From assembly GCA_043778225.1 (NCBI GenBank), contig JAYWGM010000028.1, positions 44,560 through 108,559 on the forward strand: a DNA stretch of 64,000 bases, written 5' to 3'. Positions 926-53,567 of the stretch are shown here, in pieces (the first letter of the stretch is position 1; the number at the start of each line of letters is the position of its first letter). Made by a program: the position numbers and the translations under genes. The notes under the pieces were generated by a model. It was not told where the DNA came from. It saw nothing but the letters and a program-made list of their open reading frames with translations, and ran no database searches. The DNA is from Deinococcales bacterium. GTDB lineage: Bacteria; Deinococcota; Deinococci; Deinococcales; JAAFIG01.

Positions 926-1001
926 GCGACCATGCCCGATAGCGACCCAGCCCGTCAGGTGCATCTTTAGGGTCAAGAAGGTGCGTGCTTATGGTCAAGA
1001 A
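926..1001 (+). mobile_element. Two nested copies of a ~38-nt hairpin mini-element (outer 926-941 plus 980-1001; inner 942-979)
   Basis: Outer copy GCGACCATGCCCGATA|GGTGCGTGCTTATGGTCAAGAA is interrupted at its loop by GCGACCCAGCCCGTCAGGTGCATCTTTAGGGTCAAGAA. The same motif recurs at 1334, 53398, 53487 and 53515. Confidence 0.75.
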
Positions 1002-1060
1002 AGGGTTAAAAGGTTAAAAGGTTAAAAGTTAAGGGCAGAACAGTTACTTTTTCCCTTTTT
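1002..1060. repeat. Short tandem AAAAGGTT octamer array with a degenerate complementary arm
   Basis: agggtt aaaaggtt aaaaggtt aaaagtt ... ttactttttcccttttt; same family as 37734-37811. Confidence 0.6.
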
Positions 1061-1067
1061 CTTCTTG

Positions 1068-1259
1068 CCAACCTTATCTCGAGTATTTCGAGTTTCGCAT
1101 GAGCTTTTGGGCGCGTGTTCACTGGCTTGAAGGCGGCTCGAGCCGACGTTCACTCGAGGGTGGCGGTTCAGGTGGGCGAATCGGTGCTTTGTGCCGATAG
1201 GAGACTCGAGGCTTTTGGCTGTACACCCTTAAAGGGCAAGCAACTCGAGACAAAGCTGG
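1068..1259 (-). ncRNA. Candidate ~190-nt structured ncRNA (possibly Y-RNA-like)
   Basis: In minus sense CCAGCUUUGUCUCGAGU (1259-1243) pairs with ACUCGAGAUAAGGUUGG (1084-1068), giving 17 bp with three G-U pairs. Internal hairpins are GCCCUU/AAGGGU, AUCGG/CCGAU and CGGC-UCGA-GCCG. Confidence 0.5.
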
Positions 1260-1291
1260 TGGTGCTTGGGTCAACGATTTTGCTTATCGTT

Positions 1292-1401
1292 TGGTGATTT
1301 ATGGGAGTCGAACCCATTACCGTCAGTTTATAAGCGACCCTGCCCGCGAGGTGCGTCTTAGGGTCAAGAAGACTGATGCTCTAACCAGTTGAGCTAAAAC
1401 C
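1292..1401 (-). tRNA. tRNA-like gene 3 (Ile-UAU-like), with a 37-nt insertion in the anticodon loop and a 5-bp acceptor stem
   Basis: GGTTT-TA-GCTC AACTGGTTA GAGC-A-TCAGT C[37 nt]TTATAA ACTGA-CGGTA-ATGGG TTCGACT CCCAT-AAATC-A-CCA. Confidence 0.8.
1334..1370 (+). mobile_element. 37-nt mini-element inserted in the anticodon loop of tRNA-like gene 3
   Basis: GCGACCCTGCCCGCGAGGTGCGTCTTAGGGTCAAGAA; removing it restores the 7-nt loop CTTATAA. Confidence 0.8.
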
Positions 1402-1402
1402 T

Positions 1403-1507
1403 TGGTAAAAGATGCAGGATTTGAACCTGCTTGCCCGTTTGGGCGCTCGAACAGTCGTTTGTGCGACTGCAACCCGAGTGCGTTTATCCAGTATCCGCCA
1501 ATCTTTT
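1403..1507 (-). tRNA. tRNA-like gene 2 (class II, Leu-like body) with an extended hairpin in place of the anticodon loop
   Basis: 7-bp acceptor AAAAGAT/ATCTTTT plus A-CCA; D arm GCG GATACTGGATAAA CGC; anticodon stem CTCGG/TCGAG enclosing 23 nt (GTT GCAGTCG CACAAA CGACTGT); variable arm GCCC AAAC GGGC; T arm GCAGG TTCAAAT CCTGC. Confidence 0.8.
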
Positions 1508-1508
1508 G

Positions 1509-1591
1509 TTTGATGAAAGGAATCGAACCTTTGACCTCTCGAGTGGTCAGTCAAATGACCAGCCAAGCGCTCTACCCCTGAGCCACATCAA
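1509..1591 (-). tRNA. tRNA-like gene 1 with an extended anticodon arm and no encoded CCA
   Basis: 6-bp acceptor TTGATG/CATCAA; D arm GCTC AGGGGTA GAGC; stem CTTGG/TCGAG enclosing 20 nt (C TGGTCA TTTGAC TGACCA C); AGGTC; T arm AAAGG TTCGATT CCTTT. Confidence 0.75.
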
Positions 1592-1607
1592 TTTATCTTT
1601 GTGCGAT

Positions 1608-1677
1608 ATGCAAGGTAAGCAGGGCTTATTTGCATCAGCGAGGCTATGCAAACCTCTGACCACGGCACGTGATGCAA
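1608..1677. promoter_or_regulatory. Candidate operator: four ATGCAA/TTGCAT half-sites upstream of the tRNA-like array
   Basis: ATGCAA at 1608, TTGCAT at 1630, ATGCAA at 1646 and 1672; includes ATGCAA-N16-TTGCAT and TTTGCAT-N10-ATGCAAA. Confidence 0.4.
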
Positions 1678-1801
1678 AAAGTGTACTCGAGAAGTCAAAA
1701 AAGTCCATGACTGATTTGGCTTACGCCAATGTGCCAATCGTCACGTTTAGCAAGCTGGTTTTTTCACGTCTGACAGAGGTAGTATACCGTATACTCGAGC
1801 C

Positions 1802-4552
1802 ATGCTTGAACGATTTTTTAGCTTGTTGGCTTGCAGCATAGGCTTGGTGGCTTGTCAGGACAAACCAATTTTAATTGTCAATCCGCCAGACAACAGCAGC
1901 CCAGCCTTACTTTGGTCAAATGCTGCCACATGGGGCGGGAGTGTACCAAGCGACAACAGCAGTGTGGTCATTCCAGACGGCAAACGCATTGTTTTAGATG
2001 TCAATGCCAATGTCAAAAACATTACCGTACTTGGAACGCTCGAGTTTAAGGACACCAACCTCAATCTTCAAACCGATTATATTGCTGTCCATGGTGCAAT
2101 GCGCTTAGGCAGTGCGATTAACCCATTTGCCTCCAGAGCCACCATTACCTTAAAAGGCAGCAATACCGAAGACATCATGAAGATGGGGTCTCGAGGTATT
2201 TTGGTGATGGGCGGCGAATTGTCGGTCTACGGCACAGCCCCCAAAGTTATCTGGACTAAATTAGCCGACCACAGCGCGGCTGGAGCTTTAAGTCTGAGTT
2301 TACTCGAGAATACAGCTTGGAAAACTGGCGACCAGATTGTGATTGCACCGACCGATTTTTACAACGATGGAAATTTCCAAAAATCCCCAGAGACCGAAAT
2401 GCTCGAGGTACAAAGTGCCAACGGCTCGAGTATCGGCTTAAAAAATGCTTTAAGTGGGGCGCGTTGGGGTAAATTGCAGTATGCCACCGAAAGCGGCATG
2501 AGTTTGAGTCAAGGCAGTATTACGCTGCCAAGTACATCGGCTCGAGACACGGGTGGCACTACCATTCCAACAGTGCTGGATGAACGGGCAGAAGTTGGCA
2601 ATGTCAGCCGCAACATTGTGATAGAAGCTGCCGACGACAACCTCTGGAAAGAACAAGGATTTGGCGCTCAGGTCATGATTATGGGCGAAACTGCCAAGAC
2701 CCATCTCGAGGGCATCGAACTACGGCGGGTTGGGCAAGCTGGCAAATTTGGGCGTTATCCGGTGCATTTTCATAATTTAAGTTACGACAGCACGGGCAAG
2801 GAATTAGCCGATGCAAACGCCACCCTCAAAAACTCGAGCATTTGGAATTCAAGTCAACGTTGTGTGGTGATTCATGGCTCGAACGGTGTTAAAGTGCAAA
2901 ATAATATTTGCTACAACATCAAAGGTCATGCAATTTTTCTCGAGGATGCAGTCGAGCGGCGCAACTTAATCGAAAATAATCTGGTATTGCGGGTACGCGA
3001 GCCTAAAAAAGCCCAAGCACTTTTGAAGCACGAAATTGGCGAAGCCTTTGGCGGTACGAGTTCTGGCTTTTGGATTGTTAATCCTGACAACACGCTGCGT
3101 GGCAATGTCGCCGCCGATGTTGTTGGGCATGGGTACTGGTTGGCTTTTCCAAAGACCACGCTTGGAGTCAACAACAACGTCAAGCTCAATCCGTACGCTG
3201 ACCAAGGAAAAATCATAGGCGCTCGCCCTGAAAGAATGCCGTTTGGGATTTTTGAAAACAACGTGGCGCACAGCATCCAAGACAATGGTGTGTTTATAGA
3301 TGCCGCTCCAACCGATGCTCGAGACGCAAGTGGCAACCAAATTGGCGAAACCGAAGGCGCAAAGTATGTCCCCATGCAGGGAGGTAAAGACTGGGATTAC
3401 GATTTTAGCAAGTGGGAACGCTTTACTTTGGCTAGAGTCACGACCTATAAAACAGGTTCGTACTGGGGCGGTGGTGGCGGCATCTGGAATCGTAACAGTT
3501 ACCCCAATTTTCTCGAGTGGGTTTCGGCAGACCATCAGGGCGGTTGGTTCGCTGGGGCTGGCGACGATGGCTTAATTGCCCGTAGCCTGATGGTTGGCAC
3601 AAGCCTCAATATTGGTGTGGCTCGAGCCAGCACCCAGCCTTTGGCAGCCTTAGCGAGTTATCACAGCACTTTTGACATGACCCAAAACATTATCCTCGAG
3701 TTTCCATTTGCCCAAGGCACGGAAAACAACCCAAGTGGTGTATTTATGACTGCCGATTATTACATCACACCAGTAGACAAAGGCTTAAAACGCAATCCAG
3801 ACAACAAGTTAGTCAATGCTCACCCCGGACGACGTGTACAGCCTTTTACAACCGAAAACTGGGCTTTGGCTGGCGCACTTTGGGATTACAACGGCTATTG
3901 GGGGAAGGCAGGCAATTATTGGGTTTATGACCAAGCCTTCTTTACATCTGGCACAAGCTGCACCCAAGTTGCACCAGTCGGCAAAAACGGCGCAAGTTGT
4001 GTTGGTCCATACTATGGCATTGGCGATTTTGTAACCAATTTTGACACCGACCGCTACGGTTTTAAGCACCCCATAGAAGCTACTCGAGTTGACTCGAACG
4101 GCACAACTTTGGACACTTGGAGTGTGGGCGACGGCAATACTGCCCCAAAATTGGGCAATATGCGCCATTTTGCAGCCGTCAAGAATGGGCGCTTTATGCT
4201 GCGTTTTCCTAAGCGCTCGGGTTCTGGGTACGAAATTCCACAGCGTTTTGAATCCACCGTGGATAACTTTCTGAGTGCCAGCGACGAAACTTTATTGGCG
4301 GTACAGTTTGATGGCACAAAAAACCCAAGCATTAGCCTCGAGAACGGCACAGAGACTCGCGCAATCAACTCGAGTGGGATAAATCTGGCAGCCGTAACAG
4401 CCGACTCGAGTGGCAAAACCTTTTTCTTTGACCGTGGCAATAACTTACTTTGGCTGAAATTAAAAGGTGGGCTGACCAAAAACCCCAATTGGAATCAAGA
4501 CCCGAAATCCAACGACCAGTTGTATCAATCTATGCGGCTCGAGATTAAGTGA
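1802..4552 (+). CDS. G8-domain beta-helix lipoprotein (CEMIP/TMEM2/fibrocystin-like)
   Basis: Lipobox GLVAC; G8 motif WSNAATWGGSVP...VVIPDGKRIVLD; DERAEVGNVSRNI; GRYPVHFH; RCVVIHGS; GHAIFLED; TATACT 6 nt before the ATG. Confidence 0.85.
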   Translation: MLERFFSLLACSIGLVACQDKPILIVNPPDNSSPALLWSNAATWGGSVPSDNSSVVIPDGKRIVLDVNANVKNITVLGTLEFKDTNLNLQTDYIAVHGAMRLGSAINPFASRATITLKGSNTEDIMKMGSRGILVMGGELSVYGTAPKVIWTKLADHSAAGALSLSLLENTAWKTGDQIVIAPTDFYNDGNFQKSPETEMLEVQSANGSSIGLKNALSGARWGKLQYATESGMSLSQGSITLPSTSARDTGGTTIPTVLDERAEVGNVSRNIVIEAADDNLWKEQGFGAQVMIMGETAKTHLEGIELRRVGQAGKFGRYPVHFHNLSYDSTGKELADANATLKNSSIWNSSQRCVVIHGSNGVKVQNNICYNIKGHAIFLEDAVERRNLIENNLVLRVREPKKAQALLKHEIGEAFGGTSSGFWIVNPDNTLRGNVAADVVGHGYWLAFPKTTLGVNNNVKLNPYADQGKIIGARPERMPFGIFENNVAHSIQDNGVFIDAAPTDARDASGNQIGETEGAKYVPMQGGKDWDYDFSKWERFTLARVTTYKTGSYWGGGGGIWNRNSYPNFLEWVSADHQGGWFAGAGDDGLIARSLMVGTSLNIGVARASTQPLAALASYHSTFDMTQNIILEFPFAQGTENNPSGVFMTADYYITPVDKGLKRNPDNKLVNAHPGRRVQPFTTENWALAGALWDYNGYWGKAGNYWVYDQAFFTSGTSCTQVAPVGKNGASCVGPYYGIGDFVTNFDTDRYGFKHPIEATRVDSNGTTLDTWSVGDGNTAPKLGNMRHFAAVKNGRFMLRFPKRSGSGYEIPQRFESTVDNFLSASDETLLAVQFDGTKNPSISLENGTETRAINSSGINLAAVTADSSGKTFFFDRGNNLLWLKLKGGLTKNPNWNQDPKSNDQLYQSMRLEIK

Positions 4553-4553
4553 T

Positions 4554-6290
4554 TTAGGGATAGACATTGGCATTGGTGGCTGCGCCCATACTGCCCATTT
4601 GGGCGGGTGGGCAAACACCGCCAGGAGCGCCAAAGTTGCCCAGTAACCCAGCTATTAGCGTGTTGTTGCTGGCAGAAAAAACCATATGGCCAGAGGCTAA
4701 TGAATAAACCCCGCCACCAATCGCATCGCCACCGTTACCGCCATTGGTGGCTTGAACAAGACATTGGGTTGGTGAGGAAACCGAATTAAAACCAGTCCCA
4801 CCATTGCCGCCCCAAGCCAAATTATCTTTGATTTCTGAAGCAATGATTTTTAAGGCACTGCTCGAGGTTGCCGCACTATAAATGCCAGCCCCATAGGCAT
4901 GACCGCCATTTTGACCCGCCACACTCAGCGATCCATTCGCCCCGTTGCTCCCTGTAGCCGTGTTATTGCTGATTTGGCTGTACTCAATACTCAAAGCCCC
5001 ATTGGTGGTGCTAAAAATTCCGCCGCCTCGAGCCACTAAAAGCGCAGCAGGCAGACCAAGAACCGCAGTTGTGCCTTTGACTTGGTTTGAAGTTATTTTC
5101 ATCCCAATCAAGCGCGTGGTGGTATCAACTAAAATTCCCGCCCCACCAAAGTTAGTGCCATTGTGGGTGAGTCTGCCATCTTTAATTGTAAAACCACCCA
5201 GCACCACAGTTTTTCCAGTGCCTGTGGTCTCGAGAACCCGAGAAGCAAAACTTCCAGACAGTGACACATTCGCCCCGCCATACAACCCAATGGACTTATT
5301 GATCACCAGTGGGCTACCAACCCCGATGGTGGTATCAAAACAAATGCCATCCCCTTGGGTCGCATTGGCAACAGCATTGGTCAGTGCGTTCACACCCGAC
5401 ACAATTATATTCACGGCTGGCACGGTTAAATGGGTGCTGACGGCATCTGAACCTATTCCGCCCAATTTACCCGCCACCCTAAGGTCATGAATAAATTTGA
5501 GGTTCGTAGTGGTATCACCACACGCCTGTCCACCCAGCATCGTGACTTTACGAGTGCCGCTCGGCACAGCACTTAAACCCGCCACTGTCCCCGCAATCTG
5601 TTCCTCGAGACTCTGGACAAGTTCGTTGACCCCGCCTTCGGAAAATAAAAAAGTCAGGCTAAAACCATATGTACCAGAAGTTTGGTTTGGCACACTCAGG
5701 GAAAGGGTGACTGTGGCTGTTTCGTTTGGGGCAATGGTTCTTGGATTGCTGTCCAAGTTCGTATCGCCAACCCGTTGCTGCATTAAATAACCAAATCCAA
5801 GCGGGTATTCGCCAACCCCAAGGGCAGCCCCAGCTTCGGTGGCTCGAGTATTGATTTCACTTTGATTAAAAAGTTGTAAATCGGCGGCATTTGAATCCAC
5901 TGTACTCGCATTGCAATCCATACCGTGACTCGACACGATGGCTCGAGGGTTAGGCGTAGTTGCACCACCAAAATTAACAATCGCTTTGAGGGCTGTACCA
6001 TCGGCATTACCAGATTTGTGATAGGCATGAAGCAGCAGATTATTGAGGGTTGAGTTGGTGTTGTTGGTGAACCGAAAACTGCGTCGTAAATAGCGCAAGC
6101 CCTTGGTCATGTCATCGCAGACTGCCACGGCTGCCAGTGGCACAAAACTCAAGGCGGTATCGGGCAGGACTGCCGCTTGGGTCAAGACATTGGACATTGG
6201 TAACTCGAGTGCGCCAAGTGTTTGCGGACTCGGTTGTGGGTTTTGCTGACAAGCCAAGAGACCAACAAAAAGAACAATCAACCGCTTCAT
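4554..6290 (-). CDS. Lipoprotein with a C-terminal Gly-rich beta-helix/Pmp-like repeat region
   Basis: Lipobox LLAC; GGAGI/GGGIF/GGGVY and GGNGG repeats; 578-aa ORF. Confidence 0.7.
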   Translation of the reverse strand: MKRLIVLFVGLLACQQNPQPSPQTLGALELPMSNVLTQAAVLPDTALSFVPLAAVAVCDDMTKGLRYLRRSFRFTNNTNSTLNNLLLHAYHKSGNADGTALKAIVNFGGATTPNPRAIVSSHGMDCNASTVDSNAADLQLFNQSEINTRATEAGAALGVGEYPLGFGYLMQQRVGDTNLDSNPRTIAPNETATVTLSLSVPNQTSGTYGFSLTFLFSEGGVNELVQSLEEQIAGTVAGLSAVPSGTRKVTMLGGQACGDTTTNLKFIHDLRVAGKLGGIGSDAVSTHLTVPAVNIIVSGVNALTNAVANATQGDGICFDTTIGVGSPLVINKSIGLYGGANVSLSGSFASRVLETTGTGKTVVLGGFTIKDGRLTHNGTNFGGAGILVDTTTRLIGMKITSNQVKGTTAVLGLPAALLVARGGGIFSTTNGALSIEYSQISNNTATGSNGANGSLSVAGQNGGHAYGAGIYSAATSSSALKIIASEIKDNLAWGGNGGTGFNSVSSPTQCLVQATNGGNGGDAIGGGVYSLASGHMVFSASNNTLIAGLLGNFGAPGGVCPPAQMGSMGAATNANVYP

Positions 6291-6294
6291 GGAT

Positions 6295-7230
6295 TTATGC
6301 TAACACTTGCTGTAAAAAACTTGGGTCATAATTACCACCAGAGACAATACACACGGTTTTACCCCTTGGCGTAAACACCCCAGAGCGAATTGCCGCCGTG
6401 GTCAGTGCGCCGGTTGGTTCAACTGCCAGTTTGGTCTCGAGAAACAAATGGCGCATGGCTTCAAGAACCGCATCTTCGGATACAGTCATCATATCGTCCA
6501 CCAAGCTCGAGATGATTTCGTAATTCAACACGCCAAGCCCTTGGGTTCGCACCCCATCGCAGATGGTTCTTGTCACCAGACTGGCATCCCACGAACGGCG
6601 CTCTTTGGCATAAAACGATTCTTTGGCATCAGCCGCCAATTCTGGTTCGACCCCAATCACTTTGGTTTTGGGCGATAGCGCTTTAATCGCCACCGCGATT
6701 CCAGCCAGTAGTCCACCGCCACCAACACAAACCAGAACCGTATCCACATCGGATAAATCCTGCACAATCTCAAGTCCGATTGTGCCTTGCCCGGCAATCA
6801 TTCTGGCATCATCGAATGGCGCGATGTACTCGAGACCACGTGAATCCCGAAGATTCATGGCGACCTGCATCCGCAAATCCGAGGCATTTGGGCAACGCAC
6901 GATTTCTGCTCCCCAAGCGGCTGTTCGGTCTACTTTAATTTGTGGGGCATTGTGTGGAATTACAATTGTGCTTAGAATACCGTGCATAAAAGCTGCCGCC
7001 GCCACACCTTGGGCATGGTTGCCGCTCGAGTCTGCCACAACACCCATAGCCCTCGTTTCGGCACTCAGGCTCGAGATGGCATTGTATGCACCACGGAACT
7101 TAAAACTGCCCGTGACTTGCAGATTCTCGGGTTTGAGCCAGATTCCAGCCTCGAGCGGTAAGAGTGGGGTATGCCGCGCCACACCCACAATTCGAGCGGC
7201 TGCCGCTTGCACATCGGATAAGCCCACCAT
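6295..7230 (-). CDS. Threonine/serine dehydratase (PLP, fold type II)
   Basis: KPENLQVTGSFKFRGA, SSGNHAQG, VGGGGL, VSGGN motifs. Confidence 0.92.
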   Translation of the reverse strand: MVGLSDVQAAAARIVGVARHTPLLPLEAGIWLKPENLQVTGSFKFRGAYNAISSLSAETRAMGVVADSSGNHAQGVAAAAFMHGILSTIVIPHNAPQIKVDRTAAWGAEIVRCPNASDLRMQVAMNLRDSRGLEYIAPFDDARMIAGQGTIGLEIVQDLSDVDTVLVCVGGGGLLAGIAVAIKALSPKTKVIGVEPELAADAKESFYAKERRSWDASLVTRTICDGVRTQGLGVLNYEIISSLVDDMMTVSEDAVLEAMRHLFLETKLAVEPTGALTTAAIRSGVFTPRGKTVCIVSGGNYDPSFLQQVLA

Positions 7231-8354
7231 CAGATTCGGTACTCCGTGAATGGTGCAGCATCGGGTTGACCATCACTGACGTGTAGGGTGCGCGTCTCGA
7301 GGTTCATAATCACGCCACAAATCGTGGCAACGCGGTCTTCAGGCGGTTCTTCTTGGTTTGGATAACGACAAATTCCGTCGGGGTCGTCGTCGCGGTCAGA
7401 TAAAAATTCCTTAAAATCCTCAAGTTTTAACGGGCGGCGATTCTCGAGCAATTCGGTCATGCGTTTTTGTCGGTGATAACTGTGCGGACGACGCTCAGAT
7501 GGCGGCTCGACTAAGTTCATGCTTTTTGGGTCTAAAAAGTGATTGGTATGCGCCATACTGCCTAAATTGCACGAGACGGTACGAATACCATGTGGCGCAG
7601 TTTCAAAATCAATCACTTGGTCGGGTGCATGACCCACCATAAAATTGGTACTACAGGCTTTTGTGCCATCATCTATAACGGCTCGAGCCGCTTCAAGACT
7701 GGTGGAACGCAAAATTTCCCAGCAACGTGCATGGGTTGGTCGGGCAATTCGCGCCCAGTCGTCGTCCATGCTGGTCAAGCCACTGATACACAAGCCCAGT
7801 CCAGCACTGTTTAGCCCAAGTTTTGATGCAAAAATACCAGCTTCGGTAAAACCCAACGTCTCGAGACCATCAAGGTGCTTAGTGTGCAGCAGCGCCCCTT
7901 TAACGCCTTCAATCCAATCCCAGTTTTGACCAATGGTTAATTGCCCGCTTGCCGTGGCTTCAGGCAGCGCCGCAAACAAAGTACAACCATCCGGGCGACG
8001 ATGCTCTGGGCTGGCAGTCACTCGGGTCAAACCCGCATTCTCGAGACCGACCGTGCCGTATTGGTAATACAAAATCTCGTAACGCGCATTGAGGGCAGCA
8101 ATCTCAAAAAAATTACGCCCAGAGCTTTGAGAAATGCCGCGCATCCCTTCAGAATAGGCTGGCGAAAACTTCTCGAAGTGCCGTGCTACCTTGGCTGCCA
8201 TTGAAAGGGTTTGTTCTCGAGTCAGCTTAGCTTCTTTTTCAAAACGGTAAAAATACAACTCGAGGTTGTACTCGATTAAATCTTTGAGGGCTTCGCCGTG
8301 CTGCTGCCCCTGCTCGAGCGGTGTGCCAGAAAGTTCTACCAGTCTAAAGGTCAT
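7230..8354 (-). CDS. C45 family autoproteolytic acyltransferase/peptidase
   Basis: DGCT nucleophile motif, GQNWDW, HTNHF. Start moved to MTFRL (8354), which has TATGCT 6 nt upstream and avoids overlap with recQ. Confidence 0.88.
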   Translation of the reverse strand: MTFRLVELSGTPLEQGQQHGEALKDLIEYNLELYFYRFEKEAKLTREQTLSMAAKVARHFEKFSPAYSEGMRGISQSSGRNFFEIAALNARYEILYYQYGTVGLENAGLTRVTASPEHRRPDGCTLFAALPEATASGQLTIGQNWDWIEGVKGALLHTKHLDGLETLGFTEAGIFASKLGLNSAGLGLCISGLTSMDDDWARIARPTHARCWEILRSTSLEAARAVIDDGTKACSTNFMVGHAPDQVIDFETAPHGIRTVSCNLGSMAHTNHFLDPKSMNLVEPPSERRPHSYHRQKRMTELLENRRPLKLEDFKEFLSDRDDDPDGICRYPNQEEPPEDRVATICGVIMNLETRTLHVSDGQPDAAPFTEYRI

Positions 8355-11385: not shown

Positions 11386-11399
11386 GTCACCTCTCAGGC

Positions 11400-27227: not shown

Positions 27228-27251
27228 CGATTACTTTGACCCAAACCAACA

Positions 27252-29072
27252 TTAAGGCAATGCCAAGACGGTGTACGCCACCAACCGCAAGCCGGGTGGT
27301 CCAAACGCCAAATCCAGACCAAAGCCAAAAGGTAAGAAACCAAACCAAGCCCCCGGAAAATTGATACCAACGCCAGCGCTCCATAAAAACTGGCTCGAGT
27401 TGGCATTGAGCGTTAATGCCCAACCAGCATCAAAAAAAACACGGATTTCTGGGCTGGCGCTGATGATTCCAGCCACACTGGGAAGCTCGAGCCGATAACC
27501 AAATTCAAGGTTGGCAATCACAGCTTGGCGCGAGACCGTAAAATTAGCTGGGTACGCCCTTAAAAAGCTGTGATAACCAAAGCCAAAGCCTTGTGCGCCG
27601 CCAGTAGTCAGACCCAATAAACCTCGAGCGCGAATAAAAAATGGCGCAAACCGAGTCTCGAGTCCGAGTGTGGTTTGTAAGCGCAAACTTGGAGCATAAC
27701 CAAAACGGGTCTCGAGGCTGGCGGTCAGGCTGGTGCTGCCGATTTCGAGTTTGCTTTGGGTATTCAGCCCAATTGCAAGGCTGTCGAGGCTGATTTGAAT
27801 CCTAAAAGCTGGATTTTGATAATTGCCCGGACGGTACTCGAGTCCGATTTCCCAAGGTGTCCCTTCTGGACGACGCACAGGGTCAAAGGCTGCGTATGCC
27901 CTGAGTGGTGCAAAGTCAAAACTGGCTCGAGCAAAAATACTGTCGTTGCTGTCGTTTAGGCGTTCGACATAGCCAACCCCAAAACCCAAGTTACCAAGTA
28001 CCCCACCGCTTATATCCAGCCCTAAGCCAAGGCTCGAGTAAGCACTGGGTTGGGCTGGGCGAGTATTCCAGTCAAAGGCACTCGGGGTCAGTTCGATGGC
28101 TGGGGCGATGGTCAGTGGGCGTGGCAAATTACGGGCTTGTTGTACACCGAGTTCTAAACGTTCACGCCAATTTTGGTTAATGGCGTTTTTTTCATGTGGG
28201 TCGCCTTTGGGATTTAAAGTCACACCTTTTTTTTGCAGCATCTCGAGAATCGCGGGCAATTCGGCTCGAGCCGTCACCCGACCACGCTCCATTAACTCCG
28301 AGACTTTAGAAAAATCAAAGTAGAGCGTGTCAAAAGTCTTAACCCGAATCCATGCCTCGGGTTGGGTTTGCTCGAGTGGCACGGTCAGCGCACCGACCAG
28401 AAACGAAACAGCATTGAGTAAATTATCGGGTTTTACGCCCGGCTCTGGCAGCGCCCGAATACCAATCACCACCTCCGAGCCAAGTGCTTTGGCAACACCA
28501 ACCGGAAAAGGGTCGCGCAGACCACCATCGGCATAATATGTACCATCTATTTGTGCAACCGGAAAAATAACTGGCAAACTGATGCTGGCACGAATTGCCG
28601 TGGCAGTATCGCCCTCGAGCAAGGCTTTTGGTGGGGCTGGGCGCAACTCTGTGACCATCACCGCCAGTTTTGGCGAGGTATGCTCGAGTCTGCCGTTTGC
28701 CACCAAGGCTCGGTAAACCGTTTCAAAACCAGTCGGGTCAAGAATGCCCTGAATTGGTGGGAACAAGACCCGCACCAAATCGCCTTGAACAAAACGCAAT
28801 TCGTTAAGCATAGATTCAATCGTCTTAAAACTGTAACCAGAGGCGTACAAACCGCCGACCAATGCCCCTGCCGAAGTTCCAACAATGCTGTCCACGGGTA
28901 CGCCTTCGGTAATCAGTACCTCGAGCGCTCCCAAAAATGCAAAGCCTCGAGCCACGCCACCCGCCAGCGTGACCGCCACCTGAGGGCGCGGTGCGGCTTG
29001 AGTAGTATTTTGGGCTACGGCAATAGGTGCAAACAACAGCAGCAGGACACAGCAAATTCTCGAGGTTTTCAC
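27252..29072 (-). CDS. Secreted patatin-like phospholipase with a C-terminal beta-barrel-like region
   Basis: Signal peptide; GGVARG, GTSAG, DGG motifs; alternating Gly/aromatic beta-strand C-terminal half. Confidence 0.8.
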   Translation of the reverse strand: MKTSRICCVLLLLFAPIAVAQNTTQAAPRPQVAVTLAGGVARGFAFLGALEVLITEGVPVDSIVGTSAGALVGGLYASGYSFKTIESMLNELRFVQGDLVRVLFPPIQGILDPTGFETVYRALVANGRLEHTSPKLAVMVTELRPAPPKALLEGDTATAIRASISLPVIFPVAQIDGTYYADGGLRDPFPVGVAKALGSEVVIGIRALPEPGVKPDNLLNAVSFLVGALTVPLEQTQPEAWIRVKTFDTLYFDFSKVSELMERGRVTARAELPAILEMLQKKGVTLNPKGDPHEKNAINQNWRERLELGVQQARNLPRPLTIAPAIELTPSAFDWNTRPAQPSAYSSLGLGLDISGGVLGNLGFGVGYVERLNDSNDSIFARASFDFAPLRAYAAFDPVRRPEGTPWEIGLEYRPGNYQNPAFRIQISLDSLAIGLNTQSKLEIGSTSLTASLETRFGYAPSLRLQTTLGLETRFAPFFIRARGLLGLTTGGAQGFGFGYHSFLRAYPANFTVSRQAVIANLEFGYRLELPSVAGIISASPEIRVFFDAGWALTLNANSSQFLWSAGVGINFPGAWFGFLPFGFGLDLAFGPPGLRLVAYTVLALP

Positions 29073-33148: not shown

Positions 33149-34870
33149 TCAAAAAGATGGCTCGAGTAGCCTAAACTGTTCAACATCAAATAAACCCTGC
33201 TCGGTGATTTTCAGGCTTGGAATGACCGTTAATGCTAAAAACGCTAGGGTGATAATTGGATGCGGCAGGGTGCAACCCAATTCGTGAGCGGCTGACTCGA
33301 GTTTGCGTTGGGCAGCAACCACCTCTAAAGCTGGGGCATCGGACATCAGACCCGCCACAGGTAACTCGAGAACCGCCAGAACCACACCATCTGCTACCAA
33401 AACCACGCCGCCTTGGATTTTCTCGAGTTGCAAAATCGCAAGTTCCATGTCCGAGTCTAAAACCCCTGCACAAATAATATTGTGGGCATCATGGCTGATG
33501 GTTTGGGCAATCGCGCCGCGCTTTAGCCCAATACCTTTGGCAAAACCAACCCCCGTTTTGCCCAGCCCAGAGTGCCGCTCGACTACTGCCAGTTTTACAA
33601 GGTCTTGACTTGGGTCGGCTGCTCCTAGCTCGAGACTTGGCAGATGCTCGGTGCGGATTTGAGTCGGATGAACCCCAATAATTGGCTGAGTCCTAAGGCG
33701 GCTCTCGAGGGCAATCTGAACTGGTAAATGCACACTTTTCAGGGCGGCATCTGGAAAAACATAGGCTTGGGGCGATTCAAGCAGCGCTCCATCTCGAGCC
33801 ACGATTTTGCCGAAGCGCCAGACAACTTGGGCGTTGGCAGCTTCTAAACTGTCGAACAGCACCAAATCGGCAATTTGTGAGGCAGCAACTGCGCCACGAT
33901 TGGGAATGCGCCAATACTCGGATGGGGCGAGGGTCAGCATTCGTACTGCTAACGGGGCTGGAATACCGCAAGCGATAGCAGTTCGCAGTAAGCGATCGCA
34001 GTGTCCATACTCAAGCAATTCGGCAGCATCGGCATCATCGGTAATTAGCATGGCTCGGGTTGGTTTGAGGCGAGTAATCAGTGGCGCAAGCGTCTCGAGG
34101 TTTCGCGCAGCACTGCCATCGCGCACCATCAACCATGCGCCAGAGCGCAGGCGTTCAAAGGCTTCGGCTTGGGTCACGGCTTCATGGTCGGACTCGAGTC
34201 CAGCCGCAACATAGGCTTGCCATGCGTCCCCAACCAGACCGGGTGCATGACCATCTTGGCGCTTTCCTTGGGCGGCTGCTAAAATTTCCCAGACCTTTGG
34301 CTCGAGCTTTAAGACCCCCGGATAATTCATCATCTCGCCCAACCCAAGTACACCCTGTAACTCGAGCGCAATTTTAATTTCGGCTGCGCCAAGGTTTGCC
34401 CCAGATGCCTCAAAAGCACTGGCTGGCACACACGATGGCACACTTGCCCAAACCGAAAGTGGCGTGGCTGCTCCCGCCTCGAGCATGGCTTTGATTCCAG
34501 CCAAACCAATCACATTGGTAATTTCGTGGGGTTCACAGACCACGCCAACTGTGCCGCGAGGCACAACTGTTTGGGCAAAACGGCGCGGGGTAAGCAACGA
34601 ACTTTCGATGTGAATATGGGCATCTATCAGTCCGGGCGTGAGGTACATCCCTTGGGCATCGAAGGTCTCGAGGGCGGGCAGGGCTGCACCAACCGAGGCA
34701 ATAAAACCATCAGTAATATTGACCGCTCCTAAAAAAATCGTCAGGGTATGAACATCCACAATTCGGGCATTAAAAATACATAAATCACTTGGCTCGAGAC
34801 CCTGAGCCACCCGCACCAGCCTTTGACGAGTAGCGAGACTTGGAATCGTATCCGAAGGTAGTAGTGGCAT
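33149..34870 (-). CDS. ade: Adenine deaminase
   Basis: PGLIDAHIHIESS, EPHEITNV, LGEMMNYPG, DGHAP, SDHE, ISHDAHN. Confidence 0.92.
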   Translation of the reverse strand: MPLLPSDTIPSLATRQRLVRVAQGLEPSDLCIFNARIVDVHTLTIFLGAVNITDGFIASVGAALPALETFDAQGMYLTPGLIDAHIHIESSLLTPRRFAQTVVPRGTVGVVCEPHEITNVIGLAGIKAMLEAGAATPLSVWASVPSCVPASAFEASGANLGAAEIKIALELQGVLGLGEMMNYPGVLKLEPKVWEILAAAQGKRQDGHAPGLVGDAWQAYVAAGLESDHEAVTQAEAFERLRSGAWLMVRDGSAARNLETLAPLITRLKPTRAMLITDDADAAELLEYGHCDRLLRTAIACGIPAPLAVRMLTLAPSEYWRIPNRGAVAASQIADLVLFDSLEAANAQVVWRFGKIVARDGALLESPQAYVFPDAALKSVHLPVQIALESRLRTQPIIGVHPTQIRTEHLPSLELGAADPSQDLVKLAVVERHSGLGKTGVGFAKGIGLKRGAIAQTISHDAHNIICAGVLDSDMELAILQLEKIQGGVVLVADGVVLAVLELPVAGLMSDAPALEVVAAQRKLESAAHELGCTLPHPIITLAFLALTVIPSLKITEQGLFDVEQFRLLEPSF

Positions 34871-34878
34871 GGTCTATG

Positions 34879-35015
34879 ATACCAAATTGTGTTAATCAGT
34901 CGCGTATTTTGACTGATTAACCGACTAAAAGGAGTAACAACGAAACCGAATTAACGCCTGAACGGCAGTTTGACCGTTTTTTGGTCAAACTAGAGTGATT
35001 AAGTTAATTCGGTAT
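34879..35015. mobile_element. 137-nt MITE-like repeat with terminal inverted repeats
   Basis: Ends ATACCAAATT / AATTCGGTAT; internal hairpins; core CCGACTAAAAGGAGTA shared with the copy starting at 63903. Confidence 0.7.
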
Positions 35016-35024
35016 GATACCCCA

Positions 35025-35603
35025 ATGATTTTATTAACTGGCTTTGAAGCTTTTGGCAGTGATGCCCACAATCCAAGTGCAGCCGTGGCAGAGGCACTAG
35101 ACTCCAAAAACGTAGCAGTGCGAATTTTACCTGTGGATGGCGCAAAAATACAAGCAGCGCTTGAGGCGGCTGTTGCCCAAACCCAACCCAAAGCACTTGT
35201 CATGCTTGGACTCGCCAGAGGAAAAACCTGTTTGACGCTCGAGAAAGTTGCCTTAAATTGGCTCGAGTACCGAATTCCAGACAATGCTGGAATCACCAAA
35301 AGTAACCAGAAAATACTCGAAGAAGCCCCAGATGCCCACTTCTCGAGCCTGCCACTCGATGCGATTACAACTGCACTTAAAGCTCAAAAAATTCCGCATG
35401 AACTCTCGTACTCGGCAGGAGCATTCTTGTGTAACCAAGTATTTTTCTTGGCTCGAGCCTTGTACCCGAGTTTAATGGCTGGTTTTCTGCACTTACCGAG
35501 TGATGAAACACTAGCGCAAAGCAAATCCGAACCATTTTTGCCACTCGAGTACCAGATAAAAGCAGTGCGTTTGGTTCTTGAGACGATGCAAAAAATACTT
35601 TAG
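35025..35603 (+). CDS. pcp: Pyroglutamyl-peptidase I (C15)
   Basis: ILLTGFEAFG...NPS, LEKVALN, SAGAFLCN, GFLHLP. Confidence 0.92.
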   Translation: MILLTGFEAFGSDAHNPSAAVAEALDSKNVAVRILPVDGAKIQAALEAAVAQTQPKALVMLGLARGKTCLTLEKVALNWLEYRIPDNAGITKSNQKILEEAPDAHFSSLPLDAITTALKAQKIPHELSYSAGAFLCNQVFFLARALYPSLMAGFLHLPSDETLAQSKSEPFLPLEYQIKAVRLVLETMQKIL

Positions 35604-38286: not shown

Positions 38287-39471
38287 TCACCCCATACCTA
38301 AAGGTAGGGGCTTCTGAAGTCGTTGGGGACGCACAACTGCGTTCCCCTCGTTCAAGGGCAAATCCTGCCCTAATCTAAGAATGTTCAAAGCTGCATTAAC
38401 ATCACGGTTAATCTCGAGGTTACACTTGGCGCACACATACCCTTTACCAATAGCAACCTTTTGCCGATGACCGCAACTAGAACAATCTTGAGATGTAAAT
38501 CTAGGGTCTACACCCTGTACTCTCCGACCAGCTTCTACCGCTTTGTTGGAAAGGATACTTAAAAACATTGCCCAGCCTGAATCTAAAACACCTTTAGCTG
38601 TTCTCGAGCGAGCCAAGCCAATGATGTTAAGGTTCTCATGGTAAATCACATCATGCTTGTTAATCAGTTTACGGGCGGTCTTATGGTGAAAGTCTTTGCG
38701 CTGGTTGGCAGTCTTTCGGTGCAACTTTGCGACTCGAGTTTTAGCTTGTTTACGACCTCTCGAGCCTCGTTTCTTCTTGGACAGGCTGCGCTGTGCAGTT
38801 CGTAAGTTACGTTGTGCTTTAACATAGTACCGTGGTGCAGCCTCAAATTCAGCATCGGAAGTAATCAAGAAATTAGGATTCGTTCCAAGGTCAATACCAA
38901 TGACTGACCCTGTAGACTCGAGTGGCTTGTTCTCTATCTCGCAAGTGTAAACCGTGTACCAATGATTAGCTTCCCGTTTGATGGTAAGAGTCTTAGGTTT
39001 GCCCTCGAGTGGACGGTGAAACTTGATTTTGACTTCACCGATTTTAGAAAGTTGGATACGGTTATGCTTAATTGGTTTGCCAACACCAGCCCAAGTATTT
39101 CTCTTGTTATCCCAAAGTTGGGGATAGGTGAAACTATCCCATCTATCAGCACTCTTAAATCTTGGAAAACCAGCAGCACCACCTTTTTTAACTCGAGAAA
39201 AGAAACCTTGAAATGCTTTGTCCAAGCGTTTTAACGTATCTTGCAAAGTTTGGGAAAACACATTTTTGAACTCAGGACGCGCCTCTTTAATCTCAGGAAG
39301 ACTGTTAATTTGCTCATAGGCTGATACGCTTTTCTTGCATTTTTTGTATGCCTCTTTGCGTTCCTCGAGTGCTGCGTTATACAACTCCCTCGTTAAGTAC
39401 AAGGTGTCTACCAAAGCCTTTTCTTGGGCTTTGGTAGGGTAGATACGGTACTTAAACGCCTTGACAATCAC
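38287..39471 (-). CDS. tnpB: RNA-guided endonuclease TnpB
   Basis: KAFKYRIYPT; RuvC motifs GIDLG / HENL / NRDVNAA; Zn finger CSSCG...CAKC. Confidence 0.95.
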   Translation of the reverse strand: MIVKAFKYRIYPTKAQEKALVDTLYLTRELYNAALEERKEAYKKCKKSVSAYEQINSLPEIKEARPEFKNVFSQTLQDTLKRLDKAFQGFFSRVKKGGAAGFPRFKSADRWDSFTYPQLWDNKRNTWAGVGKPIKHNRIQLSKIGEVKIKFHRPLEGKPKTLTIKREANHWYTVYTCEIENKPLESTGSVIGIDLGTNPNFLITSDAEFEAAPRYYVKAQRNLRTAQRSLSKKKRGSRGRKQAKTRVAKLHRKTANQRKDFHHKTARKLINKHDVIYHENLNIIGLARSRTAKGVLDSGWAMFLSILSNKAVEAGRRVQGVDPRFTSQDCSSCGHRQKVAIGKGYVCAKCNLEINRDVNAALNILRLGQDLPLNEGNAVVRPQRLQKPLPLGMG

Positions 39472-39502: not shown

Positions 39503-39910
39503 CTAAACATCTTTTTGATTCTCGATGTACTGCTTCACAATACTTAAAGGCGCTCCACCAACCGTGGATACGAAGTAACTATTTGTCCAGAGTGTGGGTA
39601 ATCTACTTTTTAACCACTCGAATTCTTGTCTTAAATACCGACTGGAACGCCCTTTTAATTGTTTTACAACTCGGTGGATTCCAAATTGTGGGTCTACCTC
39701 GAGTAGAATATGCACATGATCAGGCATTATCTCGAGTACCAGAATCTCGCACTGCATCTCTGCACAATTCTCTCTGAGAATCATTGCTAGTCGTGTTTCC
39801 ACACCATTGACAAGCACTTTACGACGATACTTTGGACAGAACACAACATGGTACTTACAAGAGTACGTGATATTGTTATTTGACTTGTACTGCACATGGC
39901 TATTCTTCAT
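39503..39910 (-). CDS. tnpA: IS200-type Y1 (HUH) transposase TnpA
   Basis: YHVVFCPKYRR, PDHVHI, KGRSSR, LWTNSYF, YIENQ; TATAAT 6 nt before the ATG at 39910. Confidence 0.95.
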   Translation of the reverse strand: MKNSHVQYKSNNNITYSCKYHVVFCPKYRRKVLVNGVETRLAMILRENCAEMQCEILVLEIMPDHVHILLEVDPQFGIHRVVKQLKGRSSRYLRQEFEWLKSRLPTLWTNSYFVSTVGGAPLSIVKQYIENQKDV

Positions 39911-40175
39911 TTGTATATTATACAACACAATGCTATCTAATGTGCAAAAGAAGTTGATTGGTCTTTCTCGAGAGCTTCGCCCTCGTATGCGTCGCTACGC
40001 GACGAAACCTGTCCATCCCCATAGCTAAAGCTAGGGGTTTTTCGGTTTTTTCAGATAAAATCATGAGTGATTTTTAGATACTGTATGAGGGACAACAGCT
40101 TAGTGTCATAACCTTGCAACTTTTCTAGGCTTAATGGCGTACAATAGCCTGTTGCCTTTTGGCATCCGGAGTAAA

Positions 40176-46958: not shown

Positions 46959-47114
46959 GGTTTGTATTCTAAAGTTTTCAGACTCGTACTCAAATTGAAT
47001 TTTACTCGAGTAATTTTCTATTGTCTTTCACAGCTTGATTCGATTCAGGCAGCTTTCAGAGGGGTGCGCCTAAATTATATCCATCAGCGAAACAATCGCT
47101 TAAAGGAGTAATTT

Positions 47115-50305: not shown

Positions 50306-50331
50306 CCTAAGACTTTACCGCAAGCCCTAAT

Positions 50332-52569: not shown

Positions 52570-52597
52570 TTTTTCTCCTGAGTTCATTTAAGTTTCC

Positions 52598-52615
52598 TTA
52601 CCAACCGCTCGGTAA
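52598..52615. promoter_or_regulatory. Probable TetR operator upstream of the MFS gene
   Basis: Palindrome TTACCAACCGCTCGGTAA; a second copy lies at 53231. Confidence 0.7.
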
Positions 52616-52630
52616 TCTAATAGGCAAATG

Positions 52631-53221
52631 TTAAGGCATCTTGACCTCTTGACTGTAAATCCCATACCCCAAGAGTTCGATAACTTTTTCAGGCAAAGCG
52701 TCAAAGGTTTGCCATTGTGTAATGGTGGCAAATTCGGAGACCAAACCCATAAATGCCCAAGTTGCAAATTGAGTGTCCAGAATTCGTAATTCGCCACTTT
52801 GAATACCAGCTTCAAAAACGGCTTTGACTTGGGCGAATAATCGATCTTGAAAATGCCTAAAAAGTTGATCTTGGTGGTCTTGGCTCATAAATCGCAAAGC
52901 ATCCCGCAGCATTCGTTGGGTGTGATGCTGCTCGGTAAAAACCCATCTTGCAATCGCCGTCAGTTGAGCTTGAACACCAGAATTTGTGCCTACCGCAGTG
53001 CTAAAACCTATTTCGTCTCGAGCCAAAACCTGCTCGGCAATGTCGAGCATCATTTCTTCTTTGCCCTTTGGAAAATGATGATACAAACCCGCTTTTTTTA
53101 AGCCAGCCCCTCGAGCCACTTGTTCCATTGAAACGCCCAAGTAACCTTGGTCACGCAATAATGCTTCGGCGACCTCGAGAATTCGTTGGCGTTTACTGAT
53201 TGGCTGGGTTATTTGTTTCAT
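52631..53221 (-). CDS. TetR/AcrR family regulator
   Basis: RILEVA...GYLGVSMEQVARGAGLKKAGLYHHF. Confidence 0.92.
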   Translation of the reverse strand: MKQITQPISKRQRILEVAEALLRDQGYLGVSMEQVARGAGLKKAGLYHHFPKGKEEMMLDIAEQVLARDEIGFSTAVGTNSGVQAQLTAIARWVFTEQHHTQRMLRDALRFMSQDHQDQLFRHFQDRLFAQVKAVFEAGIQSGELRILDTQFATWAFMGLVSEFATITQWQTFDALPEKVIELLGYGIYSQEVKMP

Positions 53222-53230
53222 CAGATTTCC

Positions 53231-53248
53231 TTACCGAACGGTTGGTAT
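53231..53248. promoter_or_regulatory. Probable TetR autoregulatory operator
   Basis: TTACCGAACGGTTGGTAT, 10 nt upstream of the tetR start. Confidence 0.7.
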
Positions 53249-53380
53249 CTTAACGACCCAAGCTAAAAGAGATATAATCGCAAAGCACAATTCATACCAA
53301 ATTATTTATGGTCATGCTCGATAGAACCTCCGACAGGTCTTGATTTTAGAATTTTTCATCGAATCTACAAACGGAAAAAC

Positions 53381-53567
53381 AGGGCGAACACGGGGGTCTC
53401 TTGACCATAAACCATATACGCGCACCTGATGGGCATAGTCGCTCGCCCCTACCCAACGTATTTTCATACCCTTTTTGTAGGGGCAGGCGACCCAGCCCAT
53501 CAGGTGCATCTTTAGCGACCCAAGCCCGTTAGGTGCTGCTTTGAGGGTCAAGAAGCTGTGTCTGTCC
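53381..53567. repeat. Pair of GTAG-type REP hairpins, each interrupted by mini-elements
   Basis: AGGGCGAACACGGGGGT|TCGCCCCTAC with an insert at 53398-53442 (minus); GTAGGGGCAG|GCTGTGTCTGTCC with inserts at 53487-53554. Confidence 0.75.

Follow-up and report, generated by a model that had tools for sequence, protein, structure and literature searches.

A self-nesting 37–39-nucleotide hairpin element with a dinucleotide junction rule in an uncultured family of the Deinococcales

The stretch of DNA analysed here (the window, 64,000 nucleotides; nt) belongs to a genome designated G000, the genomes of relatives carrying labels of the same kind (G005, G010, G015, G025, G030 and G055). It contains six copies of a short hairpin element that inserts into its own loop, joins its targets by a dinucleotide rule and is restricted to one uncultured family of the Deinococcales. 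Sites that are filled in one genome and empty in its congeners, together with the exact junctions of nested copies, indicate that the element is very probably mobile and, being non-coding, non-autonomous. The evidence for insertion and for the junction rule is given first, followed by the distribution of the element, the enzymes that might move it and a comparison with known systems.

Structure of the element

The element is 37–39 nt long and has no coding content. Read 5' to 3', it starts with GC and the first arm of an outer stem of 5–6 bp, which lead into a constant inner hairpin, GCCC-GNNA-GG(T)GC, in which one T is bulged. The 3' side alone then has 4–7 nt rich in T, after which come the second arm of the outer stem, AAGA and 0–2 variable bases. 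The ends, GCGA and CAAGA, are constant and asymmetric and do not form inverted repeats, while the short tail between CAAGA and AG tracks the subfamily. In a search that left the loop free, the loop was GNNA in 131 of 133 distinct copies; it is not of the GNRA type, as its third position accepts all four bases. The bulged T and the variable tetraloop had both been described in an earlier note on this DNA, made from the letters of the window.

A covariance model was built from an alignment (A1) of 71 copies from relatives and three from the window. The window copy at 53399–53442 was omitted owing to its internal duplication, and L012, L088 and L101, which come from unrelated taxa and had passed the head filter, were removed by hand before alignment. 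The constancy of the inner stem and of GGTCAAGA in A1 is imposed by the search pattern. The outer stem differs between subfamilies while staying paired: among 73 distinct rows, column pair 8–31 is A-U in 34, C-G in 22 and something else in 17, and column pair 9–30 is U-A in 33, C-G in ten, A-U in three and U-G in two. The covariation that the earlier note had reported for this stem is real, its score being 0.096 compared with 0.038 in shuffles, a value reached by none of 500 shuffles. At least ten stem versions are present among the 133 distinct copies (for example GACCAT/ATGGTC, GACCAC/GTGGTC, GACCCC/GGGGTC, GATTCC/GGAATC and GATGCC/GGCATC), as well as one variant class with a different outer helix.

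Filled and empty sites

Five orthologous comparisons of filled and empty sites were found among congeneric genomes, which is the comparison with close relatives that the earlier note had called for. Its statement that removal of the element leaves a recognisable host also holds, the target being restored exactly. At the first site the element interrupts a tRNA-like gene (Table 1), and an exact 37-nt gap is seen in all four congeners compared (G010, G055, G005 and G015); ARAGORN called no tRNA in the interrupted gene at 1296–1401 and called the uninterrupted orthologues as tRNAs. The second site is the nested pair at 926–1001, where the orthologous spacer of G010 and G055 is short and element-free. 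The third lies in dnaE (contig C15 of G000, 4273–8337; orthologues at L171–L176), in which Pfam identifies PHP, DNA_pol3_alpha and other domains. In five congeners two inverted repetitive extragenic palindromes (REPs) headed by GTAG lie within the reading frame, in the part that joins the PHP domain to the polymerase domains; G030 has neither. The loop of the first REP is filled only in G000 and the second REP only in G015, each by an independent insertion of 39 nt that keeps the frame. The fourth site is a 39-nt in-frame insertion, missing in G055, in an open reading frame (ORF) of 241 aa without a Pfam family. At the fifth, a REP just upstream of the syntenic gene for a RAYT-like protein (described below) is filled at one position in G000 and G005 by different stem subfamilies and is empty in G055 and G015.

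In-frame copies are present in further genes. The dnaX gene contains four tandem in-frame units of 39 nt, a 1280-aa FGAM synthase (large purL) has copies in two linkers, and the C-terminal tails of a Complex1_30kDa (nuoC-like) and a 4Fe-4S (nuoI-like) protein also carry copies. Long open frames hold 21 of 142 loose pattern hits, 11 of these being true copies and the others chance look-alikes, and 14 of 96 copies fall within crude ORF calls. The remaining kinds of host are octamer tandem repeats, a 150-nt MITE-like repeat (MITE, miniature inverted-repeat transposable element) and the tetraloop of the element itself, up to three deep.

Taken together, the non-coding unit and the orthologous empty sites support the proposal of the earlier note that this is a dispersed, non-autonomous, inserted element. 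A weaker explanation would be that the element is only a passenger, spread by REPs, REPINs (hairpins formed by REP doublets), the MITE-like repeat, gene conversion, slippage and tandem amplification. Many copies do lie in other repeats with shared flanks, as repeated composite units, and 21 of 101 copies are in tandem with another copy. Against this stand clean single insertions into unique sequence (the tRNA-like gene and the 241-aa ORF), two dnaE REPs that the congeners have in common but that are filled in one species each, a single REP site filled by different subfamilies and nested pairs whose inner and outer copies are from different subfamilies. The passenger explanation is thus already largely refuted and is regarded as very improbable.

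The interrupted tRNA-like gene is part of a conserved trio of tRNA-like genes (window 1296–1592, minus strand). The anticodons of its orthologues are tct in G055, tgt in G010, tga in G005 and tag in G015, and apparently tat in the window, the bodies of these genes being alike. The neighbouring tRNA-like genes of the trio have caa, gaa, tac and tcg in congeners, and a four-base call, 'ggtc', in the window. A separate observation concerns the nuoC-like and nuoI-like proteins (contig C86 of G000, 63418–64488 and 67136–68284), which have similar C-terminal extensions of about 100 residues. In both extensions a CCCC(A/C)TCAACGAG hairpin repeat is combined with the mini-element and another variant of the element, and both terminate in ...KIKRWEPKS.

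Junction rule

With the boundaries placed at GCGA...CAAGA, the flanks are irregular and the added length is 37, 38 or 39 nt. Under these boundaries the two flanking dinucleotides are identical in 46 of 189 copies, whereas shuffles gave 22.7 on average and at most 35. The self-nested copies settle the boundaries, as they leave no doubt about the target. Each of the 31 distinct nested cases has a left half-loop of the host that ends in A and an insert that starts with G, and at the other end CAAGA is followed by 0–1 bases and an A before the host resumes at GGTGC. The inserted piece is therefore G...A, placed between the A and the G of the target (A^G, the caret marking the point of insertion), with AG at both junctions; read on the complementary strand, a piece T...C is inserted at C^T. 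Once the first base of GCGA is assigned to an AG junction, the dinucleotide identity of the flanks is no longer puzzling. A fixed target duplication was rejected, as the lengths vary between 37, 38 and 39 nt and only AG recurs at the junctions. The earlier note had described the absence of a consistent duplication, which stands, and purine|purine junctions, which can now be narrowed to the A^G rule. This rule is new in the present analysis.

The five empty sites obey A^G, except for one left junction in the dnaE comparison that is GG instead of AG. In the wider set of copies, A precedes GCGA in 51 of 92 copies from G000 and in 73 of 97 from relatives, against 5956 of 29367 (20%) at other GCGA sites. 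Similarly, AG follows CAAGA after 0–1 nt in 59 of 92 and 78 of 97 copies, respectively, against 1201 of 10072 (12%) at other CAAGA sites. Target information beyond A^G is strongest at position +2, which is G in 55% and C in 33% of cases and amounts to 0.6 bit.

Copies in the window

All six copies reported in the earlier note are present where it had placed them, as read directly from the sequence (Table 1). Its pattern gives four uninterrupted matches in the window, whereas 100 shuffles that preserved dinucleotides gave a mean of 0.00. The strict pattern is unable to match the outer copy, which is interrupted, or the truncated one, and both were confirmed by eye. Rejoining 926–941 to 980–1001 yields a canonical copy. 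The REP-borne copy sits in a GTAG-headed REP hairpin with arms at 53380–53398 and 53443–53452, and the truncated and full copies share a single host of the same type (arms at 53477–53486 and 53555–53567). The truncated head-to-tail junction type occurs four times in the genome. Positions 942–969 and 53487–53514 differ by one base, so that the match of 27 of 28 nt over 52 kb noted earlier is correct.

Table 1. Copies of the mini-element and associated features in the window. Bit scores of copies are from the covariance model.
Feature	Position	Strand	Strict-pattern span	Description
Outer copy	926–1001	+		Stem type GACCAT/ATGGTC; tetraloop GATA split by nested copy
Nested copy	942–979	+	942–978	Stem type GACCCA/GGGTC; 38 nt added; AG at both junctions; 59.5 bits
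Host tRNA-like gene	1296–1401	-		Rfam tRNA, 39.9 bits (gathering score 29), with element as insertion
Copy in tRNA-like gene	1334–1370	+	1334–1369	In anticodon loop; 37 nt added; 54.6 bits
tnpB	38287–39471	-		394 aa; OrfB_IS605, Cas12f1-like_TNB; partner of tnpA, single-copy element
tnpA	39503–39928	-		IS200/IS605-type Y1 HUH transposase; 141 aa; Y1_Tnp 150.5 bits
REP-borne copy	53399–53442	-	53399–53442	7-nt internal duplication; 24.6 bits, E 6.9e-4
Truncated copy	53487–53514	+		3' GGGTCAAGA missing; head-to-tail with next copy
Full copy	53515–53554	+	53515–53553	Stem type GACCCAA; 49.7 bits

Assembled contigs from three sequencing sets, aligned over window positions 300–2300, contain no joint that skips an element; such contigs drop rare variants and are hence silent on polymorphism. 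The stretch is present in two DNA contig sets from one study, from which the assembly may derive, and no RNA set is listed as containing it. Tandem octamers of the GGTTAAAA/GGTCAAAA/GGTAAAAA kind adjoin or surround copies of the element at window positions 1002–1030 and in many other places.

Insertion into hairpins and into itself

The 31 distinct nested cases confirm the claim that the element inserts into itself, and head-to-tail arrays with spacers of 1–2 nt are also present. A rough classification of 101 copies with 40-nt flanks places 13 within the loop of another copy, 21 in tandem, seven in GGTYAAAA-type repeats and five in the 150-nt MITE-like repeat. The preference for hairpins was tested on the 65 remaining distinct sites in G000 by joining the flanks in silico and folding them. 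Strong hairpins (-8 kcal/mol or lower) are formed at 12 of these 65 sites. Of 600 positions chosen at random, 40 form one, as do 37 of 600 random positions with A^G, and the mean folding energy of the joined flanks is -5.3 versus -4.1 kcal/mol. The folding test replaced a cruder search for flanking stems, which was dropped as uninformative when 645 of 3000 random positions passed it. Several insertion sites are plain coding sequence or A-rich tandem repeats. Hairpin loops are thus favoured but not required, and outside self-nesting the targeting of hairpins is modest. The description of the element as structure-targeting in the earlier note holds for self-nesting and for REP loops, and in a weaker form for the other sites, where strong hairpins are only moderately enriched.

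The MITE-like repeat itself (about 150 nt; window approximately 34,866–35,045) is present in at least 35 copies genome-wide, often at contig ends. It begins ATACCRAATT... and ends ...AATTCGGTAT, and contains two internal hairpins and two or three hot spots for the mini-element; the copy in the window is empty. Its centre (GCGAC...TTTTTGGGTCAAAC) partly resembles the two ends of the mini-element.

Abundance and distribution

The G000 assembly comprises 4.03 Mb in 107 contigs, with a G+C content of 48.7% and a completeness of 89%. The genome search proposed in the earlier note gave 67 matches to the strict pattern and at least 131 matches to the covariance model at E ≤ 0.01, of which exactly four lie within the window; the model count is a lower bound, since 150 of about 4256 first-look candidates were scored. 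Decayed, low-scoring copies are among the model matches. Many copies lie less than 200 nt from contig ends, suggesting that further copies have probably been lost in assembly.

A search of one genome per prokaryotic species placed the GCGAC-headed motif, among the matches listed, in uncultured metagenome-assembled genomes (MAGs) of the Deinococcales and Deinococcota; single hits in other taxa, again among the matches listed, lack the GCGAC head, and their number fits chance for an 18-base pattern. The covariance model found matches in 17 of the 18 other genomes of the family to which G000 belongs. In four sister families of the order only two of 132 genomes gave a match, each of them a single weak one (E 8.6e-6 and 7.9e-5). 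Nine pattern matches were found in viral contigs, none with the GCGAC head, which marks them as chance matches. Rfam gave tRNA as its sole match, whether the whole window was searched at the gathering score or positions 880–1420 at E ≤ 1. A literature search, to which most subscription journals were out of reach, found no described counterpart. The element is restricted to one uncultured family of the Deinococcales.

In G030, a 2.3 Mb genome of the same genus that is 82% complete, no copy of the element, RAYT or other Y1 gene, IS110 element or dnaE REP was found. It represents either a repeat-free lineage or a MAG that was stripped of its repeat-bearing contigs.

Within the family, the genes of congeners are 69–85% identical to those of G000, yet their copies of the element are 95–100% identical to those of the window, and the motifs are constant across five genera. 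Such conservation might point to a cellular function that came first, with mobility secondary; the sequence could, for example, be bound by a nucleoid protein, a gyrase-like protein or one that binds RNA, as has been proposed for REPs. It is explained equally well if only intact copies can be mobilized, and decayed copies do exist. The occurrence of the element in both orientations, in coding linkers, in a tRNA-like gene and within itself fits a selfish element instead, and a primary cellular role is considered improbable.

Candidate enzymes

The candidate genes of G000 are one IS200/IS605 element, one RAYT-like Y1 gene, one IS110 element and one weak RVT_1 match. An IS607-type serine recombinase was rejected as a candidate, as no Resolvase domain was found in G000 (89% complete). 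The tnpA gene in the window is one of the two Y1 genes of the genome and may encode an enzyme that acts on the element in trans. The other, the RAYT-like gene (contig C32 of G000, 27219–27881; L153 3217–3882), scores 36 bits with Y1_Tnp against a cut-off of 23 and is syntenic across the genus, lying in six genomes directly downstream of one and the same gene that by eye resembles anthranilate synthase. Its coding sequence holds two inverted GTAG-headed REPs between the HUH and Y motifs, a trait that is listed for subclass 2.4 in PMC6006769. In the RAYT paralogues of G010 and G055 a run of DHDQNPV(R) repeats occupies the place where the RAYT carries its REPs.

The reading preferred here, with a probability of roughly 0.4, is that a RAYT or other Y1 HUH enzyme moves the element; it is drawn from comparison of sequences. 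Passages of PMC3479197 describe TnpA_REP of Escherichia coli as cutting within a CT dinucleotide, between its two bases. According to these passages the CT may stand to either side of the hairpin, its distance from it varies, and it is recognized by the AG of the GTAG tag. The C^T junctions of the element match this published cleavage and thereby favour a RAYT-like enzyme, and the low information content of the target (0.6 bit at the strongest position beyond A^G) fits a specificity for the dinucleotide only. A RAYT-like Y1 enzyme would act in trans on single-stranded DNA, recognizing the constant hairpin together with the GCGA and CAAGA ends; it would cleave on each side at the closest C^T and join the piece into any C^T that is exposed. 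On this reading the tail of 0–2 nt would come from the flank of the donor, up to the cut site that lies nearest, and a variable distance to the nearest CT would explain this heritable tail. The proposal in the earlier note of a TnpA-like or RAYT-like HUH enzyme is a reasonable one. Homologues of the RAYT of G000 were found in 16 of 18 family genomes, and none was found in the element-free congener G030.

A number of observations weigh against this reading. RAYT homologues are also present in 28 of 132 sister-family genomes without the element, showing that a RAYT is not sufficient; the co-occurrence of the two, which the earlier note had suggested examining, is compatible with a RAYT as the mover but is weak. 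The 26 Y1 and reverse transcriptase loci that were searched (80,771 bases) hold six model hits, which is no enrichment, and the model found no element at four non-syntenic RAYT paralogue loci; at the syntenic RAYT it occurs only as a guest in the upstream REP, in two of six genomes. A replication-strand orientation bias is typical of IS200/IS605 single-strand transposition. No orientation bias was seen for the element, with 37 of 66 copies on the G-rich strand and 31 of 56 relative to the majority gene strand, the skew of MAG contigs being noisy. The element has no GTAG tag, only an AG one base before the stem that could equally be a product of the junction; the stem is preceded by (A)GC, with variable bases at the two positions ahead of AG. 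Inspection by eye for pairing between a guide and the cleavage site, in the style of IS200/IS605, gave nothing consistent. The predicted folding energy as single-stranded DNA is no better than that of shuffles (z -0.4 to -1.5), and stem mismatches are divided evenly between G.T (14) and A.C (14), giving no sign that one strand, or an RNA, is folded. The junctions have exceptions: the flanks are T|...|A in seven of 97 copies from relatives, and AG is absent within 0–2 nt in 20 of 92 copies from G000. Copies that spread within larger composite repeats also make these counts non-independent. Finally, IS110 elements likewise leave a CT core at both junctions, so that the rule does not single out an HUH enzyme.

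The even division of mismatches also bears on an RNA intermediate that is reverse-transcribed and then integrated. A fold at the RNA level would be in keeping with the GNNA loop, the bulged base and the G.T pairs seen now and then, and the variable bases at the 3' junction could be untemplated additions. The lack of strand asymmetry, the lack of a consistent orientation relative to neighbouring genes and the absence from Rfam, at E ≤ 1, of any matching family besides tRNA all speak against it, as does RVT_1, which was found in five of 19 family genomes and not in G025, a single-contig genome. The RNA route that the earlier note had offered as a second possibility is thus disfavoured and is the least probable of the explanations considered.

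The exceptions to A^G and the variable tail of 0–2 nt would fit imprecise joining, and could reflect an unrecognized enzyme or host process, such as a family-specific nuclease or recombinase or the capture of small single-stranded fragments at nicked A-G steps during replication or repair. No recognized candidate tracks the element well: Y1 and RAYT genes are widespread outside the family, IS110 is found in nine of 19 and RVT_1 in five of 19 family genomes, and Resolvase was not found in G000. The element also lacks the defining tags of known HUH substrates. The sharp recurrent boundaries, the constant hairpin and ends that are conserved across genera nevertheless argue for a sequence-specific protein as opposed to repair noise, and no candidate gene for an unrecognized mover has been identified. 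This alternative is rather unlikely.

IS110 element homing to the mini-element

An IS110-family element in G000 (contig C26, 30447–31608) encodes a 336-aa DEDD transposase and sits in the tetraloop of the innermost of three nested copies of the mini-element. Homologous copies are present in eight of 19 family genomes, at ten loci (within L183–L195) and in three genera. At these ten loci every readable junction lies at the same spot and in the same orientation. Left junctions (n = 8) end in ...GCCCG(N)NA and right junctions (n = 9) begin with AGGTG; seven of the nine right flanks run into the 3' half of the mini-element, one is too short and one diverges. AG, or CT on the transposase strand, is found at both junctions. 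The recurrence of spot and orientation at every readable junction shows that this IS110 element has specialized on the hairpin of the mini-element as a landing site.

The main rival to an HUH enzyme is that the mini-element is itself a miniature IS110 relative, excised as a circle and inserted at a CT core by a DEDD recombinase guided by a bridge RNA. Both of its junctions carry AG (CT on the other strand), and a shared CT core is described as an IS110 signature in passages of PMC11208160. Conservation is highest in TCAAGA(N)AG and CGAC, two parts of the element that become contiguous in a circle or tandem junction, where the donor site would lie, and head-to-tail arrays with spacers of 1–2 nt do exist. 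An intact IS110 element is moreover present in G000, integrated at the same tetraloop A^G that the mini-element uses. On the other hand, IS110 targeting specifies about 11 target positions according to the same source (PMC11208160), and the targets of the mini-element share little beyond A^G. The ends of the sole IS110 element of G000 are unlike those of the mini-element, and many IS110 copies carry stop codons. DEDD_Tnp_IS110 was found in only nine of the 19 genomes of the family, with no hit in the single-contig G025 and none in three congeners, each 94% complete, that are rich in copies of the element. An IS110 origin is accordingly judged unlikely, and a RAYT or other Y1 HUH enzyme continues to be preferred.

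Significance

How REPs and other very small repeats move is a question that is decades old. RAYTs cut and join REP DNA in vitro, and the mechanism of propagation remains unclear in the account given in PMC3479197. The element may represent a minimal transposable unit, consisting of one 37–39-nt hairpin and a two-base target, that is mobilized in trans by a vertically inherited, domesticated RAYT or by an undescribed recombination system; this is a tentative and somewhat doubtful proposition. If it were true for a RAYT, it would give the first sequence-level picture of a RAYT moving DNA. With either mover the outcome is a parasite stack of three levels: genes carry REPs, the mini-element occupies REPs and further copies of itself, and an IS110 element homes to the loop of the mini-element. 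The element provides clean material for this question, with dozens of exact junctions, self-nesting that exposes the target and independent in-frame dnaE insertions in sister species, and the simple rule of G...A entering A^G yields a sharp prediction that can be tested on an enzyme encoded once in a small genome. The element shows, moreover, that linkers of core replication proteins can accommodate an added 13 codons and that a bridge-type IS110 can specialize on another mobile element as a landing pad.

Palindromes in the genome

CTCGAG occurs 24,877 times in the 4.03 Mb of G000, or about once per 162 bp (for example at window positions 1080–1260), which is approximately 25 times the expectation from composition. 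Other six-base palindromes are nearly absent, with three occurrences of GGCGCC, one of GACGTC, seven of CGGCCG, eight of CTTAAG and 11 of TGCGCA. The genome thus combines a highly iterated palindrome with strong avoidance of restriction sites.

Comparison with known systems

One of the two closest parallels in behaviour is that of REPs and REPINs with their RAYTs, the other being the small repeats of filamentous cyanobacteria discussed below. Both involve a short GC-rich hairpin repeat, of 20–65 nt in the case of REPs, that reaches hundreds of copies, the element being present in at least 131 and mostly extragenic, and in both a single, vertically inherited RAYT gene is found in the genome. 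Cleavage by a RAYT at C^T and at a variable distance matches the junctions of the element (PMC3479197, in the passages cited above). REPs have been documented within replication and repair genes and inserted in small palindromes, as described in portions of PMC3733652. According to an excerpt of PMC6006769, however, REPs are defined by a tetranucleotide, either GTAG or GTGG, that lies 0–2 nt 5' of the foot of the hairpin. The element lacks this tag, whereas the genuine REPs of G000 carry GTAG. It is also unlike a REP in that it is not arranged in inverted pairs and does not flank a RAYT gene, in that it nests in its own loop and parasitizes GTAG-headed REPs and in that its ends, GCGA and CAAGA, are asymmetric.

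With derivatives of IS200/IS605 the element shares the absence of terminal inverted repeats and of a true duplication, precise excision and a hairpin with an extrahelical base, which is a recognized feature of that family, and a tnpA-tnpB element is present in the window. In IS200/IS605 elements the left hairpin differs from the right one, and insertion takes place 3' of a conserved tetranucleotide or pentanucleotide, as described in the relevant passages of PMC6006769. The element, in contrast, has a single hairpin and a dinucleotide target, and no replication-strand bias was seen for it. No strong IS200-type TnpA was found in G010, the only Y1 hit there being a weak, RAYT-like one of 23 bits.

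A CT core at both junctions and the absence of inverted repeats are shared with IS110 and its bridge RNA, and repeats such as REPs are natural targets of IS110, as indicated by the reference list of PMC11208160. In contrast, IS110 elements are autonomous, approximately 1.2–1.5 kb long and directed to a long specific target, while the target of the mini-element is near-random and its ends differ. A classical MITE was rejected, as terminal inverted repeats and a fixed target-site duplication are absent (ends GCGA and CAAGA; 37–39 nt), and so was a CRISPR repeat, as adjacent copies are nested or 1–2 nt apart and there are no regular unique spacers.

Rickettsia palindromic elements (RPEs) are several times longer than the mini-element. 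They differ further in that each copy here adds 13 codons and that copies in genes often lie within a REP that is itself inside the gene. In-frame insertions that are tolerated in the linkers of essential proteins are a point in common with RPEs and with REPs in genes, as described in parts of PMC3733652.

The comparison drawn in the earlier note with the very small repeats of Nostoc is apt as a description of behaviour, although the host is a Deinococcales lineage and not a cyanobacterium. The small dispersed repeats (SDRs) of Nostoc and other filamentous cyanobacteria, attributed to Elhai et al. in 2008 (Genome Res 18:1484), are reportedly 21–27 nt long and nested, lie in short tandem repeats and hairpins, produce no target duplication and have no known mover. 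The likeness, which is one of behaviour, comprises nesting as well as the companion short tandem repeats and hyper-abundant palindrome of G000. The differences are the phylum Deinococcota, a length of 37–39 nt, a two-tier hairpin and an explicit A^G rule. The element fails the defining tests of every family examined (REPs, IS200/IS605, IS110 and MITE derivatives), and is best described as a lineage-specific, self-nesting mini-element with a dinucleotide junction rule.

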